This document shows, piece by piece, positions 4,629 to 10,125 of a stretch of 64,000 nt of DNA. Numbering within the stretch: the first letter of the stretch is position 1; the number at the start of each line of letters is the position of its first letter. The stretch is from the NCBI GenBank assembly GCA_012178725.1, contig GCA_012178725.1_3030.1; one strand, given 5' to 3'. The notes under the pieces were generated by a model that worked only from the letters and a program-made list of their open reading frames with translations, searched no databases and was not told the DNA's origin. The DNA is from a phage. A program made the translations under genes and the position numbers.

Positions 4629-5089
4629 TAGTAAAGGTCCTCAGAGTAAAGTTCTTTTTCACTACCACCACGTTCAATACGTACTTGTCCAGCGTAAGTT
4701 GCAATAATCATTGCTTCTTCACGTGTCCAATAATTACTATATTGGTCAATAAATCCTTGGTCATCATCGCAAACTTGCTGAGTAACTAATTGAGGTTTAA
4801 CTACATCTAAAACTTCTGCCATATCTTTAGAATAATGACGAGCACCTGGAATAATAAGAGTTCGTCCATCTTTTAATTTAAAACGATTGGCTGCGCAAAC
4901 AATCCGTCGTTGATACTTTTGGTTTTCATCCCAATATGCAGTCTGCCAACAGATTTCAGGAACTTCTTTCAGAATATCTTCTTCTGTGCATTTATAACCA
5001 TGCGCTTTAAATTTTTCAACAAGACTTTCTGGAGTCTCACGAGATAAAGGAACATTCAGCATTTTTAAACGATTAATAAATGGGTTCAT
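4628..5089 (-). CDS. Hypothetical early protein
   Basis: 153-aa ORF; stop/start overlap with neighbours. Confidence 0.5.
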
Positions 5090-5415
5090 TTAAACCATCC
5101 TTTAATACGCTGCCACAAAGTTTTCTGTTGAGCTTTGTTAACACCAATTGAACGAATAACTGGTTGAGATTCCTGGAATTCTTTATAATCAGCAAGGTAA
5201 ATTTCGTAAGCTGCATCCGTAAATGAACTTATCGCTGCCATAAAATTATTGCGAATACCTACTGGAGCATCTTTACTTTCACGAATAATCATGTATTTAC
5301 CAGTCTTAATCTTTACGATAGTTCCAAGATAAGCTCCATGGTACCAGATGTCCCATCCCTCTTGAGTGGGTTCTGCGCAACGACGAAGTTCATTGACAAT
5401 TTCTAACTTGTTCAT
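5086..5415 (-). CDS. Hypothetical early protein (motA.1-like position)
   Basis: 109-aa ORF immediately downstream of motA. Confidence 0.5.
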
Positions 5416-5425
5416 TATTTATTCC

Positions 5426-6061
5426 TCACAGTTCAGATGCTACAGTGATTACAGCTTCAATGTTTTCTGCCGAGCGTTTAATGTCAAGATACACATTACC
5501 GTTTTTAGCGATTTTACATGACATTCCGATGTCAGTAAATTTCTGAATATGATGTTCCATCATTTTGTATCCAAAAATTCGCATATTTCCATTATTGTTA
5601 ATTTCAAAATTACGAATTCCGTGAGTACGTTTTTCTAAAATAGCGAGATAGTTACTGCGATAAGTTTCAACCTTTTTAAGAACAAATCCATTTTCATCTA
5701 AAAGTTTTAACATGAGGTCTTTATCTTCTTCCATATCAGAAGTAATTTCACGAGCTTTACGAGTTGCTCGTTTTTTCAGTAGTTCCGGAGCATTTTCCTG
5801 TGCATATAAAGTTGCTGCGTTTGAAATAATATCCTGAGCTTCACCTGTAATGATTAATCCATCACCAGATTTCTCCACCAGGCCTTTTTTAATCAATACC
5901 CCAATATTACTATTAACTACTGCGTTACCTAAATCTGGATGTACCTCACGAACTTCTACAGCTGTAATGAAATCTTTCTTAGCAATGGTAATTAAAATCG
6001 CAGCAGTTTTTTCATTCAGAACATCGTTAGAAGCTTTGATGATATAAGTTACTTTAGACAT
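5426..6061 (-). CDS. motA: Middle-transcription activator MotA
   Basis: 211 aa, matches remembered T4 MotA (MSKVTYIIKASNDVLNEKTAAILITIAKKDF...); early promoter cassette upstream. Confidence 0.92.
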   Translation of the reverse strand: MSKVTYIIKASNDVLNEKTAAILITIAKKDFITAVEVREVHPDLGNAVVNSNIGVLIKKGLVEKSGDGLIITGEAQDIISNAATLYAQENAPELLKKRATRKAREITSDMEEDKDLMLKLLDENGFVLKKVETYRSNYLAILEKRTHGIRNFEINNNGNMRIFGYKMMEHHIQKFTDIGMSCKIAKNGNVYLDIKRSAENIEAVITVASEL

Positions 6062-6094
6062 TTTCTAATCTCCGTAATTCTGTATCAGTAGTTG

Positions 6095-6131
6095 ATAGTT
6101 GTATAGTACCACAGTATGCTTTGGTTGTAAA
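6095..6131 (-). promoter_or_regulatory. T4-type early promoter upstream of motA
   Basis: Minus strand GTTTAC-18-TGGTACTATACA, conserved leader ACAACTATCAACTAC..., SD GGAGATTAG. Confidence 0.6.
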
Positions 6132-6147
6132 CCGTTTTGTGAAAAAA

Positions 6148-6183
6148 TTTTTAAAATAAAAAAGGGAGAGCCTCGGCTCTCCC
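6148..6183 (-). terminator. Rho-independent terminator downstream of gene 52 / small membrane ORF
   Basis: GGGAGAGCC...GGCTCTCCC hairpin followed by TTTTTTATTTT on minus strand. Confidence 0.6.
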
Positions 6184-6188
6184 TAAAA

Positions 6189-6338
6189 TTACTGCATGAC
6201 TGTGATAACTGTCATGATAACACGTTGAATTCCGAACGCAAGAAGACCTCCTGCTATGGCTGGAACAACGCCTAAACCCGCCAGTAAAATGCTACCAGAT
6301 ACTAATGCAGCGCTTGTAATACCAATGAATGGACTCAT
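6189..6338 (-). CDS. Small glycine-rich membrane protein, 49 aa
   Basis: Hand-translated MSPFIGITSAALVSGSILLAGLGVVPAIAGGLLAFGIQRVIMTVITVMQ*; ATG overlaps gene 52 stop (ATGA); followed by a terminator. Confidence 0.4.
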   Translation of the reverse strand: MSPFIGITSAALVSGSILLAGLGVVPAIAGGLLAFGIQRVIMTVITVMQ

Positions 6339-7663
6339 TTGATTTCCTCTAAATCTTTGGTGTATTCGGTAACTACATCAGTAGTTTTCCAATATTCGTT
6401 TTCTTCTTTTTTAGCTTTAGCTTCTTCAGCAAGTTTCTTTGCTTCATCGGAAGTCATATGAAAAATATTCATTCCAACTAGTTTATCAACATAAGAAGAA
6501 TACATATCGATTTTCGAAAGTTCTTCGGTCAGTTCTTTACGAGTTTTACCCTGTACAACAATTTCACCTGAAATTACTTTCTTAATGAAATGTGCCTTGG
6601 CAAAGGCTAAACGAAAAGCTGACTCAGTTTCTTTGATTTTGTTATCAATTCGTTTTTGGACATAAGTTTTACGAACTTCAACAAAGTCTTTAATTAAATC
6701 AACTACGTTATCGTAAACTTGTAGTTTTCCTTTCTCATTAATAACCGTAATATTCTGAGAACGACGCTCAATCAACCCGAAGTCTTTCATAATTTTTGCG
6801 TGGCGTTCTTCTTCATTATCGCTCAAAGAATATTCTTTACGGAATTTAACTTTGAATCCAAAACCGTGCTCACCGCAAGCATCATCCCATGTAATGAAGC
6901 CTTTATCTTCAAGTGGGTCTAAAATTTTACTCACATAAGTTTCACGATCATACTTATACGGAATCTCAGTGATATGCATTTGAGTTCGTGAAGTAAACTT
7001 ATATGTTCCACGAATTTCATATTGCCCATCAATTTCAACGACTTCACCACGAAATTCTGGGAATTCTACCTTCGGTTTAGTTACTTTCTTTCCTTGAAGA
7101 GCTTGCAGTACAGCTTTCTTAACAGAAGAAACACTATGAGGAAGAATGTAAGTTGCATAACCAGTTGCAATACCGGAAACACCATTAAGAAGAACAGTAG
7201 GAATAATAGGCAAATAGAAAGCAGGCGGAATGTGTTCTTTATCTTGATGTACCGGAGCATATTCAGTATCTTTATATACGTTATAGAAATTTTTACTTAC
7301 ACGAGCAAAAATATAACGACTTGCTGCTGCTTTTTGGACGGTACGAGAACCAAAGTTTCCTTGACCATCTAACAGAGGAAAGTTATTATTCCAAGTGTTA
7401 GCCATCAAAGCACCTGCGTCTTGCGCAGAGTTTTCACCATGATGATATCCAAGGTCCGCTACACCGCCTGCGATAGAAGCGAGTTTGTGAAACTTATCTT
7501 TATTTCCTCGTGCCAAATCAAGAGCTCGAGCAATAACAAATCGTTGAACTGGCTTAAATCCATCAATCATATTTGGAATGGCACGATTTTCAACCGTGTA
7601 CATAGCATAAGCCAATGCTTCATTATCAATGATACTTTTTAAATCGCGATTATTCAGTTGCAT
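6335..7663 (-). CDS. 52: DNA topoisomerase II medium subunit gp52 (GyrA-like)
   Basis: 442 aa; GyrA-like breakage-reunion region; T4 gp52 size and position. Confidence 0.95.
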   Translation of the reverse strand: MQLNNRDLKSIIDNEALAYAMYTVENRAIPNMIDGFKPVQRFVIARALDLARGNKDKFHKLASIAGGVADLGYHHGENSAQDAGALMANTWNNNFPLLDGQGNFGSRTVQKAAASRYIFARVSKNFYNVYKDTEYAPVHQDKEHIPPAFYLPIIPTVLLNGVSGIATGYATYILPHSVSSVKKAVLQALQGKKVTKPKVEFPEFRGEVVEIDGQYEIRGTYKFTSRTQMHITEIPYKYDRETYVSKILDPLEDKGFITWDDACGEHGFGFKVKFRKEYSLSDNEEERHAKIMKDFGLIERRSQNITVINEKGKLQVYDNVVDLIKDFVEVRKTYVQKRIDNKIKETESAFRLAFAKAHFIKKVISGEIVVQGKTRKELTEELSKIDMYSSYVDKLVGMNIFHMTSDEAKKLAEEAKAKKEENEYWKTTDVVTEYTKDLEEIK

Positions 7664-7806
7664 AAATTTACCATACTAGTGAATGTAGTGCCATAATAAC
7701 ATCAGAAATGAAAAGCACGACTTGAATTAATCCGAACATTACTCCATAATATAGTGCTACTAATAAAGTAGCAAGGGCTAATGAATAGCCCAAGATTTTC
7801 TTAATC

Positions 7807-7959
7807 ATTAGTAGATAACAACACAAATGTTAAATATGCACACATACCCTGGGCTAAAGCTTGCGAAAACACGCTGCTGGCATCAATACAGATAGTTAAA
7901 ACACATGCTACTATCCAACAAATAAATGAAATAACTCCTAATAATTTTGCAATATTCAT
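7807..7959 (-). CDS. ac: Small membrane protein Ac (acridine sensitivity), 50 aa
   Basis: Hand-translated MNIAKLLGVISFICWIVACVLTICIDASSVFSQSFSPGYVCIFNICVVIY*; GAGGAAAAT SD overlaps stp stop; position between 52 and stp. Confidence 0.55.
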
Positions 7960-7966
7960 ATTTTCC

Positions 7967-8047
7967 TCACTGGCGTCCGAAGACGCCTTTAGTTTTAAGA
8001 TTATTACGATAGAACTGCATCACATGTTCGTTATGGAAATTACTCAT
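7967..8047 (-). CDS. stp: Stp peptide (26 aa; activator of the host PrrC anticodon nuclease)
   Basis: Hand-translated [26 protein letters not shown], matching remembered T4 Stp; ATG overlaps ndd stop (TAATG). Confidence 0.75.
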
Positions 8048-8505
8048 TAATATGCCTGCAAAACAAATTTAAAGTTATCAGCCAACATACGGTTCATTTC
8101 TTCAAGTGTTTGATACTCAGAATGATGATTACGAGTAAACGCCAAAGCTAACTGACCTTTACCAAATCCTGTCGTCAGAGGTTTCATCTTAGAAGCAGGC
8201 AGATAAAATACTGTGTATGGAACATTGTTATTTGCAATAGTACGTGCAAGCTGAGACCGACGTTGACGAATATGACTTAGAACTGCACTGAATCCTTGCT
8301 TAGAACGCTGATTACCTACATAAAATCGTGCAGACACACATGGATTACTAAATGGACGACCATCTAATTTACTTACTAAAAAGTAAAATCCAGGTTTAGA
8401 TAAAATGTCTTTATGCGGAGTTCCCAAAAACCATTCACCGCCCTTGATTGTGCCAATAACAGTTGCGCCTGCATTATTCAGATCAGTAACAGTCATGTAT
8501 TTCAT
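8047..8505 (-). CDS. ndd: Nucleoid disruption protein Ndd
   Basis: 152 aa from internal ATG ([13 protein letters not shown]...) with GAGGAAATTAAT SD; track ORF is N-terminally extended; T4 Ndd size and position. Confidence 0.8.
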
Positions 8506-8565
8506 ATTAATTTCCTCTAAATTATTTTCTACTCCAAGGCCGCATGAATACACGCGGCCATTAAA

Positions 8566-8781
8566 TTAATCGTCGCAGTCGACGCTCAATTCCCAAAACT
8601 CTTCTACGGTATAAGTTTCAATATCATTTTCAATACAGAAACGTTCATTACTATTGTTTGCTAAAGTAGCGTTAACTGTCATTTTCTCGCTGGTACTCTT
8701 AAGAGGTGAAATACGAATTAACTGATCACCGTTATCTAAACAAAAAATTTCACCAACTTTTACATCTTTAAAACTTTTCAT
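8566..8781 (-). CDS. Hypothetical early protein (ndd.1-like)
   Basis: 71-aa ORF with AGGTGAATT SD. Confidence 0.5.
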   Translation of the reverse strand: MKSFKDVKVGEIFCLDNGDQLIRISPLKSTSEKMTVNATLANNSNERFCIENDIETYTVEEFWELSVDCDD

Positions 8782-8789
8782 AATTCACC

Positions 8790-8897
8790 TCAAGGAGTAT
8801 AAAATCCGAATGCAGTTGTTGACCATCCCATCCAGTATGGGAAATTTGCACCAATGTAAAACATAAGAATATAAAACCAACCGCTCAGCAAATTCAT
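8790..8897 (-). CDS. Micro membrane protein, 35 aa
   Basis: Hand-translated MNLLSGWFYILMFYIGANFPYWMGWSTTAFGFYTP*; start overlaps upstream stop (TGATG). Confidence 0.3.
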   Translation of the reverse strand: MNLLSGWFYILMFYIGANFPYWMGWSTTAFGFYTP

Positions 8898-9094
8898 CAT
8901 TTTACACCGTTCCAAATTGTTTCAACCACGGATTTTAAGCCATTTTGATGAATGTCCATTCCAACTACCGCCATCAAATAGATTCCAACTACAACTGAAC
9001 CTAAGGCAAAAATCAGCATGAAAATGAATAAAGCCGGAAAAATATTATCGAAAAACCATTCAATAAATGTAAAAGCACTGCGTTTACGCTTCAT
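8897..9094 (-). CDS. Small membrane protein, 65 aa
   Basis: Internal ATG (MKRKRSAFTFIEWFFDNIFPALFIFMLIF...) with GAGGAAAAT SD; hydrophobic. Confidence 0.45.
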   Translation of the reverse strand: MKRKRSAFTFIEWFFDNIFPALFIFMLIFALGSVVVGIYLMAVVGMDIHQNGLKSVVETIWNGVK

Positions 9095-9101
9095 ATTTTC
9101 C

Positions 9102-9215
9102 TCACATAAATCCAAAGTAAACGTTTAATACATCAATCATTAAAACGATTGGGAATATACTCAAAACAACTAAAATTATAATTATATTCCATATAGCTTT
9201 AATAATCTTTTTCAT
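9102..9215 (-). CDS. Small membrane protein, 37 aa
   Basis: MKKIIKAIWNIIIILVVLSIFPIVLMIDVLNVYFGFM from internal ATG; GGAGGAAC SD; early-promoter cassette immediately upstream. Confidence 0.4.
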   Translation of the reverse strand: MKKIIKAIWNIIIILVVLSIFPIVLMIDVLNVYFGFM

Positions 9216-9220
9216 TTTGT

Positions 9221-9273
9221 GTTCCTCCGTGGTTGATAGGGTAATAATACCACAGAGGAACAGTCTTGTAAAC
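9221..9273 (-). promoter_or_regulatory. Early-promoter cassette with SD-complementary spacer
   Basis: GTTTAC AAGACT GTTCCTCTGTGG TATTATTACC...CCACGGAGGAAC ACAAA ATG. Confidence 0.55.
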
Positions 9274-9280
9274 AACTTTT

Positions 9281-9379
9281 TTAAAAATATTCGTAATAAA
9301 TGTGAATACCAATCACTACTGCCGAAACTTGCGCAACCCACCACGCACAAGCAATAAGTACAGAATTAAAAATTTTCAT
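9281..9379 (-). CDS. Micro membrane ORF, 32 aa
   Basis: Hand-translated MKIFNSVLIACAWWVAQVSAVVIGIHIYYEYF*; ATGA-coupled to upstream micro-ORF. Confidence 0.25.
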   Translation of the reverse strand: MKIFNSVLIACAWWVAQVSAVVIGIHIYYEYF

Positions 9380-9462
9380 AATAACCTCATCACAAAAGTA
9401 AATGTTAAACAAATTACTGGAATACTAATTAACCAAACAAAACACCACCACAATGAACTCAT
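9376..9462 (-). CDS. Micro membrane ORF, 27 aa
   Basis: Hand-translated MSSLWWCFVWLISIPVICLTFTFVMRLL*; preceded by 8-codon ORF MKIAEIEL* (9459..9485), ATGA-coupled. Confidence 0.25.
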   Translation of the reverse strand: MSSLWWCFVWLISIPVICLTFTFVMRLL

Positions 9463-9515
9463 AGTTCAATCTCAGCGATTTTCATTTTATTCTCCAAATC
9501 TGTATCAGTATTTGA

Positions 9516-9551
9516 TAGTTGTATAGTACCACGGTCCTTGTGGTATGTAAA
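9516..9551 (-). promoter_or_regulatory. T4-type early promoter
   Basis: GTTTAC ATACCACAAGGACCGTGG TACTATACAACTATCAA...GGAGAATAAA ATG. Confidence 0.55.
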
Positions 9552-9567
9552 CCATTTTGTGAAATTT

Positions 9568-10125
9568 TTAAATGGAAAGATACCATCCATTGTAGTTGCT
9601 TTTTCTTACAACCTTACGAAGGTCTTCTCTATCACCGATGAACTTCGGAGTGTACTGGATGACACCTGGATGAATTTCTTTAGTGTTGAATATAATTATA
9701 CAGTCCGCGACCTGGTGATTTAGAATGGGCCCTAGATTTATTCCAGAACCATATGGATACTCTCCGCTGCATCCTGTTGTTACAGAAATCCAACGTGAGT
9801 CAGTTTGATGTGTCTTAACTTCTACACGGAGCCCGCAATATTTTGGATGTGCTAAAACATCCCATGCATATGTGTACGGATCATTGACATCTTCTTGGCC
9901 TTTATTGACATATCCGCTTAGCCAATCTGCTACAAAAAACTCTGCGTACACAGCGATACGGCATCTTTCGATAACTTCTGTCTTATCCTGATTTGGGTTT
10001 TGTTTTAAAGAGTATCTTGCAGTATCAGCAATTTTGACCTTCATTTCACCAGTCAAGTCACTGTTCGATAGGGTAAATGTCGGAATCTGAAATAGTCTCT
10101 GTAGCCCCGGATTCGTTTTCTGCAT
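9568..10125 (-). CDS. denB: Endonuclease IV DenB
   Basis: 185 aa; T4 DenB size and position next to rIIB. Confidence 0.88.
   Translation of the reverse strand: MQKTNPGLQRLFQIPTFTLSNSDLTGEMKVKIADTARYSLKQNPNQDKTEVIERCRIAVYAEFFVADWLSGYVNKGQEDVNDPYTYAWDVLAHPKYCGLRVEVKTHQTDSRWISVTTGCSGEYPYGSGINLGPILNHQVADCIIIFNTKEIHPGVIQYTPKFIGDREDLRKVVRKSNYNGWYLSI

Follow-up and report, generated by a model that had tools for sequence, protein, structure and literature searches.

Does the DNA between gene 52 and denB of a T4-like phage carry a run of genuine genes for very small membrane peptides, and is the shortest of its open reading frames (ORFs), of only 8 codons, a regulator? The question was raised by contig GCA_012178725.1_3030.1 of NCBI GenBank assembly GCA_012178725.1, a stretch of 64,000 nucleotides (nt) that we call the window and whose coordinates are used throughout. 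A first inspection of its letters, hereafter the sequence-only reading, had described at 7664–9490 a chain of translationally coupled micro-ORFs for tiny hydrophobic peptides, and had suggested that the 8-codon ORF might be a regulatory leader. Our analysis indicates that the cluster very probably corresponds to the known T4 early genes motA.1, 52.1, ac, stp and ndd.2 to ndd.6, in the immediate-early, non-essential region between denB and motA, and that the 8-codon ORF has a different origin from its neighbours.

Identity of the micro-ORF cluster

A search of the phage collection with the 2-kb interval returned 567 matching records, with 494 covering at least 80% of its length. The closest match was phage Maryam (99.8% identity), and T4 was about 95% identical. 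By these matches, the phage is a T4-like Tequatrovirus. Every gene of the interval is carried by the minus strand, as are all genes and signals of the window for which coordinates are given below. From motA through gene 52 and ndd to denB, the genes had the same order and strand as in the T4 and T2 annotations, and the frames corresponded one to one to annotated genes of these two phages, with the exception of the 8-codon frame. The products of ndd.6, stp, ac and motA.1 carried at most one substitution each relative to T4, with ndd.6 being identical; those of ndd.2 and 52.1 were each one residue apart, that of ndd.5 two residues, and that of ndd.4 three residues out of 37.

A PHROG family was found for all ten products, over their full length (E from 1e-17 to 1e-37), including phrog_8851 for ndd.6, phrog_5011 for ndd.5, phrog_3098 for ndd.4, phrog_4135 for ndd.2, and phrog_3487 for motA.1. 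Pfam matches above cut-offs were obtained for 52.1 (DUF7396, 81.9 bits), the 65-amino-acid (aa) product (DUF7248, 71.9 bits), and Stp (PF08133, 75.3 bits). The only paralogy that an all-against-all BLASTP search of the micro-peptides revealed was a further ac-like gene carried by some phages, so the genes do not form a tandem family.

The frames had not been overlooked by earlier work: all but the 8-codon frame are already annotated genes of T4 or T2, and the cluster has featured in annotations and discussions ever since completion of the T4 genome. A preprint has already assigned ac to one of three clusters of predicted membrane proteins in T4 (10.1101/2025.06.30.662393). Every micro-ORF listed in the sequence-only reading was recovered, on the minus strand, and most of the proposed lengths were correct, although ndd.6 encodes 28 aa and not 27, and ac 52 aa and not 50. 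The hydrophobic frames that it listed were all real, but one had been missed, namely the 46-aa 52.1 (7668–7808), between ac and gene 52. Its statement that none of the frames stood on a track with a 60-aa cutoff was inaccurate, as the 65-aa ORF would appear there, in the form of a 72-aa TTG-extended ORF in the ORF list.

Conservation and selection

The comparison set, drawn from annotated GenBank phage records, comprised 20 loci of related Tequatrovirus phages and four of the genera Gaprivervirus, Mosigvirus, and Dhakavirus; a search of IMG/VR with Ndd yielded 5 loci. The ratio of nonsynonymous to synonymous polymorphism (pN/pS) was calculated by the pooled Nei-Gojobori method in the annotated frame. 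Each micro-ORF was intact in 17–21 of the 20–21 loci. Most pN/pS values were low: 0.07 for motA.1, 0.08 for the 65-aa ORF, 0.11 for ndd.5, 0.12 for both ac and ndd.6, 0.16 for ndd.2, 0.17 for stp, 0.28 for 52.1, and 0.46 for ndd.4, with 0.01, 0.09, and 0.05 for the controls gene 52, ndd, and denB, respectively. In the alternative frames, pN/pS was mostly above 0.8; the exceptions were mainly the antisense frame that shares third positions, plus the sparsely variable 52.1, ndd.4, and ndd.6. When the nine micro-ORFs were pooled, the variable sites were distributed over codon positions 1, 2, and 3 as 45, 23, and 102 (chi-square p = 1.8e-13).

The two weakest cases within Tequatrovirus, 52.1 and ndd.4, were settled by the deeper comparison between genera. 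The 52.1 product was 72–93% identical in the three other genera, with a ratio of nonsynonymous to synonymous substitution rates (dN/dS) of 0.07–0.14. The pN/pS of ndd.4 rested on 11 variable sites; between genera, its product was 61–64% identical (Gaprivervirus and Dhakavirus), with a dN/dS of about 0.2. For ndd.6, the corresponding values were 44–57% and 0.28–0.40. Full-length tblastn matches were found in 494 phage records for each of ndd.6, ndd.5, and motA.1, and in 510 for ndd.2, with an additional 25 Klebsiella phage records for the latter, of which the one listed was 44% identical. The conservation and Ka/Ks check that accompanied the sequence-only reading was thus run on these relatives and gave conserved frames under mostly purifying selection; with low pN/pS and frames intact in relatives, its central proposal of real, selected, tightly packed genes for very small, mostly hydrophobic peptides was upheld.

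Origin of the 8-codon ORF

The 8-codon ORF (MKIAEIEL, 9459–9485) is preceded by a GGAG Shine-Dalgarno sequence (SD) with a predicted pairing energy of -6.4 kcal/mol, and it lies about 30 nt downstream of the promoter -10 element, as in a short leader ORF. It is unannotated in T4 and T2, and its sequence is identical in T4. An 87-aa gene occupies the space between denB and ndd.6 in 13 of the 20 related loci; its product ends in ...NSNEMKIAEIEL, and its TGA overlaps the ATG of ndd.6. The sequence MKIAEIEL matches exactly the last 8 codons of this gene, which is present at full length in 631 phage records, including T6, RB68, and JS98, while the T4-type junction, with the 8-codon frame alone directly behind the promoter leader, was found in 24 records. 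Codons 3–81, which make up 79 codons or 237 nt, are missing in frame from the window, T4, and Maryam. They were lost between the 8-nt direct repeats AAATGAAA, at codons 1–2 and 80–81, so that M-K is fused to IAEIEL and the stop codon.

T2/RB6-type phages have another gene, of 68 aa, ahead of these 8 codons, and in Gaprivervirus, Mosigvirus, and Dhakavirus the homologue of the 87-aa gene invariably precedes ndd.6 and overlaps it by the same 4 nt. No Pfam family was found for either the 87-aa or the 68-aa gene. The 8 codons exhibited no peptide-level constraint (pN/pS of 0.74 on 5 variable sites). Because 631 records carry the full 87-aa gene as against 24 with the T4-type junction, the 8-codon ORF is, on this comparison of genomes, an in-frame deletion scar and not a regulator, and the proposal of a regulatory leader did not survive.

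An attenuator or leader peptide was also considered as such and rejected. No terminator or antiterminator was found between the 8-codon ORF and ndd.6, a search of Rfam at a permissive threshold gave chance-level hits only and no family match, and the ORF is not conserved as an independent leader. The fold of the leader and ndd.6 start was modest (z = -2.16 versus shuffled sequences) and placed the AUG of ndd.6 within a small hairpin loop. The promoter, leader, SD, ATG, and ATGA junction survived the deletion, so that ribosomes could still be delivered to ndd.6, which has no SD of its own. The conserved element is the junction that would deliver them: its 4-nt stop/start overlap was kept in 21 of 21 Tequatrovirus sequences (the window and the 20 loci), and was also present in the four loci of Gaprivervirus, Mosigvirus, and Dhakavirus, even with a TTG start.

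Gene organization and probable translational coupling

The ndd.6 gene (9376–9462) begins MSSLWW, and its product has one predicted transmembrane segment, as does that of ndd.5 (9281–9379; MKIFNS..., 32 aa), which overlaps ndd.6 by ATGA and has its own GAGG SD. They are followed by ndd.4 (9102–9215; MKKIIK..., 37 aa, one predicted transmembrane segment), with a strong GGAGG SD (-9.5 kcal/mol), and by the 65-aa ORF (8897–9094), which corresponds to T4 ndd.3 and ndd.2a fused and encodes a basic N-terminus, one long predicted transmembrane segment, and a polar tail of 20 aa. The ndd.2 gene (8790–8900; (M)MNLLSG..., 35 or 36 aa) encodes an aromatic-rich hydrophobic product; its first ATG lies in an ATGA overlap with the upstream stop codon, and its second ATG overlaps the same stop by one base (TGATG). 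Beyond ndd.1 and ndd, stp (7967–8047; 26 aa) overlaps ndd by TAATG, ac (7801–7959), named for acridine sensitivity, encodes its membrane peptide behind its own GAGGAAAA SD, and 52.1 ends 4 nt before the ATG of gene 52. Finally, motA.1 (6189–6338), whose product is a Gly/Ala-rich hydrophobic peptide of 49 aa, overlaps the gene 52 stop by ATGA.

The ATGA, TGATG, and TAATG junctions of the sequence-only reading were all borne out. ATGA overlaps were present at the 8-codon ORF/ndd.6, ndd.6/ndd.5, 65-aa/ndd.2, and gene 52/motA.1 junctions, and ac and 52.1 overlap by 8 nt. Gaps of 4–8 nt, with the stop codon within or adjoining the next SD, were observed at the ndd.4/65-aa, ndd.2/ndd.1, stp/ac, and 52.1/gene 52 junctions. 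The idea of one continuous coupled chain had to be given up, as the chain is broken twice, by a gap of 65 nt between ndd.5 and ndd.4, which holds an early promoter, and by one of 60 nt between ndd.1 and ndd, which holds a hairpin.

Predicted anti-SD pairing ranged from -5.2 to -9.5 kcal/mol for most cistrons and was weak in four: ndd.6 (-2.7 kcal/mol), stp (-2.5), 52.1 (+0.9), and gene 52 (-2.8). These are exactly the cistrons that start on the preceding stop codon or no more than 4 nt from it, which makes translational coupling likely. Termination-reinitiation is the most likely way in which these four cistrons would be translated, judging from their SD and junctions. Within the unit, GGAG in SD position was found only for motA (6070–6073), ndd.4 (9225–9228), and the 8-codon ORF (9492–9495), which are promoter-proximal cistrons; internal cistrons use a GAGG SD. 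GGAG is the target motif cut by the T4 RegB RNase.

The signals that would drive this expression were identified as follows. An early promoter (TTTACA-17-TACTAT with an upstream TG; 9523–9551) precedes the 8-codon ORF, ndd.6, and ndd.5, and a second one (TTTACA-17-TATTAT with an upstream TG; 9244–9272) is located in the ndd.5/ndd.4 gap; both are annotated in the T4 record X75802. A third early promoter (6103–6131), of the T4 form TTTACA-17-TAnnAT with an upstream TG, serves motA and follows a strong predicted intrinsic terminator (6163–6184) that closes the transcription unit. The ndd.1/ndd gap contains an intercistronic hairpin (GGCCGC-N10-GCGGCC; 8538–8559), which is a stem_loop in X75802. 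A further hairpin (GGCGTC-UUCG-GACGCC; 7972–7987), of the C(UUCG)G tetraloop type noted in T4 mRNAs, is located within the final six codons of stp and immediately precedes the SD of ac. In T4, these genes all have transcripts of the early class. Taken together, the two sigma-70-type early promoters (9551–9523 and 9272–9244) would produce a polycistronic mRNA ending at the terminator (6184–6163) and carrying the nine very small genes as well as ndd.1, ndd, and gene 52. Translation would start independently on those cistrons that have a GAGG or GGAG SD, and termination-reinitiation would proceed from the 8-codon ORF to ndd.6, from ndd to stp, and from ac to 52.1 and on to gene 52.

Predicted membrane character and functions of the peptides

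Maximal Kyte-Doolittle hydropathy over 19 residues ranged from 2.18 to 3.08 for motA.1, 52.1, ac, the 65-aa ORF, ndd.4, ndd.5, and ndd.6. The prediction for seven of the nine small products is thus a helical peptide that crosses the inner membrane once or twice. The transmembrane prediction that had been recommended therefore agrees with the claim of hydrophobic membrane peptides for these seven, but not for the other two: the maximum of ndd.2 was 1.17, below the transmembrane threshold used, and Stp was hydrophilic, with a grand average of hydropathy (GRAVY) of -1.0. Automated public annotations of the micro-ORFs carry implausible names ("naphthalene 1,2-dioxygenase", "sugar ABC transporter permease", "transcriptional regulator", "outer membrane protein", "periplasmic protein"), which have spread over many T4-like genomes. 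The "outer membrane" and "periplasmic" labels are implausible because the products are predicted to be helical peptides and have no signal sequences.

Within the cluster, functions are known for Ac and Stp only. Ac expressed alone sensitises E. coli to acriflavine, and it has been proposed to block the AcrAB-TolC efflux pump (10.1101/2025.06.30.662393; echoed in PMC13250531). Stp is described in the T4 annotation as a 26-aa activator of the host PrrC anticodon nuclease, and the Stp of the window is, by its Pfam match, a member of the same PrrC activator family (PF08133). The roles put forward in the sequence-only reading, which were to modulate transporters or host defence sensors, fit what is known for these two products, and for these two only. 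The T4 deletion sa-delta-9 removes 52.1, ac, stp, ndd, ndd.1 to ndd.6, and denB; the phage is viable, with about half the yield, but loses the phage-induced stimulation of phosphatidylglycerol synthesis, and a membrane location has been suggested for several of the missing products (Kutter et al. 2018, PMC6071114). The remaining peptides may insert into the inner membrane within the first minutes after infection and there bind to or interfere with host membrane proteins or lipid metabolism. These genes are not mentioned in the main text of either the CRISPRi-ART paper or the HIDEN-SEQ preprint.

Variation in individual genes

The 65-aa gene was intact in 19 of the 21 sequences (the window and the 20 loci), and its DUF7248 match spans the whole length. 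In the T4 reference, a 1-nt deletion (ATGAA-CGT versus ATGAAGCGT in the window; T4 locus 4933–5129) splits it into ndd.3 (26 aa) and ndd.2a (40 aa), and in T2 it contains a nonsense codon. The T4 reference gives ndd.4 as 42 aa, from an upstream ATG that overlaps the SD (T4 locus 5251–5265). This ATG is ACG in the window (9215–9230), which accounts for the 37 aa found here; the start of the 37-aa form is used by T2 and most records, and this form is likely to be the ndd.4 product. The ac gene has a premature stop codon in T2 and Shinka and has lost its start in SP21535. Several phages possess a tandem pair of ac-like genes (42% identical, E = 6e-9; loci L011, L014, and L020, at about 1971–2126), and some have an extra hydrophobic ORF of 57 aa between ndd and stp.

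A candidate MotA-dependent middle promoter (TGCTT-N14-TATTAT; 7693–7717) was recognized by its sequence in the 3' half of 52.1. The spacing is about 12 nt when counted from the end of the full MotA box, and the ATG of gene 52 follows about 30 nt downstream of the motif. Approximately 65 nt around it were identical in 20 of 20 Tequatrovirus loci, and it was kept in Gaprivervirus (as TATAAT) and Dhakavirus. The motif probably serves gene 52 as a middle promoter lying within the coding sequence of 52.1; this would explain the scarcity of synonymous changes in 52.1.

The surroundings of gene 52 are also partly conserved. In four genera, 52.1 directly adjoins the start of gene 52, and three of these also have a small hydrophobic ORF that overlaps the stop of gene 52. 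In Gaprivervirus and Dhakavirus, this is an ORF of 32–34 aa (MSFGVEFALLCIFAAIAGVIVGMFIGNKIDKD; L022 684–782, L025 3636–3734, L024 2275–2379), which takes the place of motA.1 in T4 and exhibits no detectable similarity to it. Mosigvirus JM17 retains the 52.1–gene 52 pair, and its downstream ORF neither overlaps gene 52 nor is hydrophobic.

The larger genes of the region were assigned as follows. Gene 52 (6335–7663), which has no recognisable SD, and the nucleoid disruption protein gene ndd (8047–8505; 152 aa) were identified by matches to the T4 annotation; gene 52 encodes the DNA topoisomerase II medium subunit (gp52), and ndd is kept in relatives. The ndd.1 gene (8566–8781; pN/pS of 0.10), which lies within the chain, encodes a soluble protein of 71 aa and not a membrane peptide. 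The flanking ORFs are those of MotA (5426–6061) and DenB (9568–10125). A direct repeat of 69 nt with 83% identity (6076–6144 and 9496–9564) comprises the early promoter and 5' leader of motA and of the 8-codon ORF/ndd.6, and could be a substrate for cassette shuffling at this locus.

Weighing of alternative explanations

Several observations weigh against the view that the cluster is a set of selected genes for coupled, membrane-located peptides. Taken individually, the pN/pS values of 52.1 (0.28) and ndd.4 (0.46) within Tequatrovirus are weak, and the conservation of 52.1 may be partly regulatory, as its 3' half is invariant DNA with the candidate middle promoter. Disrupted or changed versions of the ac gene, the 65-aa ORF, and stp occur in certain sequenced strains (T2, T4, Shinka), so these genes are dispensable, at least in the laboratory. 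The products of motA.1, 52.1, ac, stp, ndd.2, ndd.2a, ndd.3, ndd.4, ndd.5, and ndd.6 were not detected in a T4 time-course proteome, in which ndd and ndd.1 were detected, the latter as an early protein, and a literature search found no T4 ribosome-profiling study. Moreover, the membrane location of the peptides is predicted from hydropathy alone, and coupling is deduced purely from the geometry of the sequence.

The most radical alternative is that the micro-ORFs are chance frames in AT-rich early DNA, with conservation due to DNA or RNA elements such as promoters, leaders, or recombination cassettes. Hydrophobic chance ORFs arise easily in such DNA, the peptides have never been detected by mass spectrometry, the region is a known hotspot of cassette shuffling (PMC4122927), and the 3' half of 52.1, invariant and with its MotA-box-like promoter, is what this explanation would lead one to expect. 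However, the excess of variable third positions (45/23/102, p = 2e-13) contradicts chance frames, as does a pN/pS that is low in the called frame and mostly above 0.8 elsewhere. The peptides are still 44–93% identical, with dN/dS of 0.07–0.40, between genera at saturating synonymous divergence; Ac alone gives a phenotype; and silence in proteomics is expected of tiny hydrophobic peptides with few tryptic sites. Chance ORFs were rejected on the codon-position and pN/pS evidence, and we hold this explanation to be extremely improbable. Less extreme, but still improbable, is the proposal that 52.1 and motA.1 are mainly translational adapters that set the level of gp52, their peptides being without a role. 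The lack of an SD in gene 52, which starts 4 nt after the 52.1 stop, and in 52.1, which overlaps ac, speaks for such adapters, together with the retention of the 52.1–gene 52–small ORF arrangement in Gaprivervirus and Dhakavirus and of 52.1–gene 52 in Mosigvirus JM17. A pure adapter, though, has no need of a conserved amino-acid sequence, whereas the 52.1 peptide is under strong purifying selection between genera (dN/dS of 0.07–0.14, 72–93% identity) and the pN/pS of motA.1 is 0.07.

A genuine leader peptide encoded by the 8-codon ORF, whose translation or stalling would tune ndd.6 and ndd.5 in response to a signal, seems slightly less probable again than the adapters. The best SD of the leader does belong to this ORF, ndd.6 having none; the folding of the leader and ndd.6 start is somewhat more stable than that of shuffled sequences and puts the AUG of ndd.6 in a hairpin loop; and the GGAG of the SD, as a RegB target motif, could be a means of switching the ORF off after the first minutes. 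Against this, no more than 24 records have the ORF by itself behind the promoter leader and 631 have it as the end of an 87-aa protein, its 5 variable sites give a pN/pS of 0.74, no Rfam family and no terminator-like or alternative structure were found, and simple termination-reinitiation accounts for everything seen there. We therefore retain the deletion scar for the 8-codon ORF and conserved early genes for the rest of the cluster. Going beyond this assignment, one might suppose either that one of the uncharacterised micro-proteins (ndd.2, the 65-aa DUF7248 product, ndd.4, ndd.5, ndd.6, or 52.1) underlies the phosphatidylglycerol phenotype of sa-delta-9, or that 52.1 and motA.1 are co-produced membrane partners of gp52. 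Classical reports describe membrane-associated gp39/gp52. We regard this pair of proposals as unlikely, if somewhat less so than the adapters.

Significance and comparison with known systems

The outcome is mainly one of clarification: a documented T4 cluster of predicted membrane micro-proteins was rediscovered, and its sole unannotated element is a deletion scar. The cluster offers a compact, non-essential set of conserved peptides of 28–65 aa, mostly predicted to be membrane-located, inside a deletion with a lipid-synthesis phenotype. The invariant ATGA junction of ndd.6 and the ac/52.1/gene 52 chain, with its SD-less cistrons, may serve as simple cases for the study of translational coupling in a model phage. 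For the annotation of T4-like genomes, corrections are indicated for the 65-aa ndd.3/ndd.2a gene, the 37-aa ndd.4, and the "outer membrane" and "periplasmic" labels.

Among bacterial systems, small inner-membrane regulators such as AcrZ (acting on AcrB), MgrB (PhoQ), and SgrT (PtsG) resemble the peptides of the cluster in having fewer than 60 aa and one or two hydrophobic helices, and the proposed target of Ac, the only one of the peptides with a proposed partner, is an efflux pump; there is no sequence relationship to AcrZ, MgrB, or SgrT, and the parallel is a working analogy rather than family membership. Closer to the phage, the locus resembles the promoter-early stem-loop (PeSL) cassettes of T4-like hyperplastic regions (Arbiol 2010, PMC2839356; Comeau 2014, PMC4122927) in its repeated early promoter and leader (69 nt, 83%) and in its variable gene content, with an 87-aa gene, a 68-aa gene, or nothing at this spot among close relatives. 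An exchange of ndd.4/ndd.5 between T4 and PST has been described as PeSL-mediated (Comeau 2014, PMC4122927). The terminator hairpin and motA promoter at 6184–6103 fit the PeSL layout; at the promoter 9551–9523, adjoining gene content is variable, no stem-loop lies upstream, and only 16 nt separate it from the denB stop. Unlike PeSL shuffling, the deletion that left the scar lies between 8-nt repeats inside a gene and not between two PeSLs.

T4 itself (NC_000866, T4p263–T4p275) has the same gene order, strand, junctions, and two early promoters (X75802), with high amino-acid identity. The window differs from it by a single 65-aa frame, as in most relatives, in place of ndd.3 and ndd.2a, and by an ac product of 52 rather than 51 aa. 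With the 87-aa gene/ndd.6 pair of T6, RB68, JS98, and most Tevenvirinae, the window shares the last 8 codons, the TGA/ATG overlap, and ndd.6, from which arrangement it and T4 differ by the absence of 79 codons of the upstream gene.

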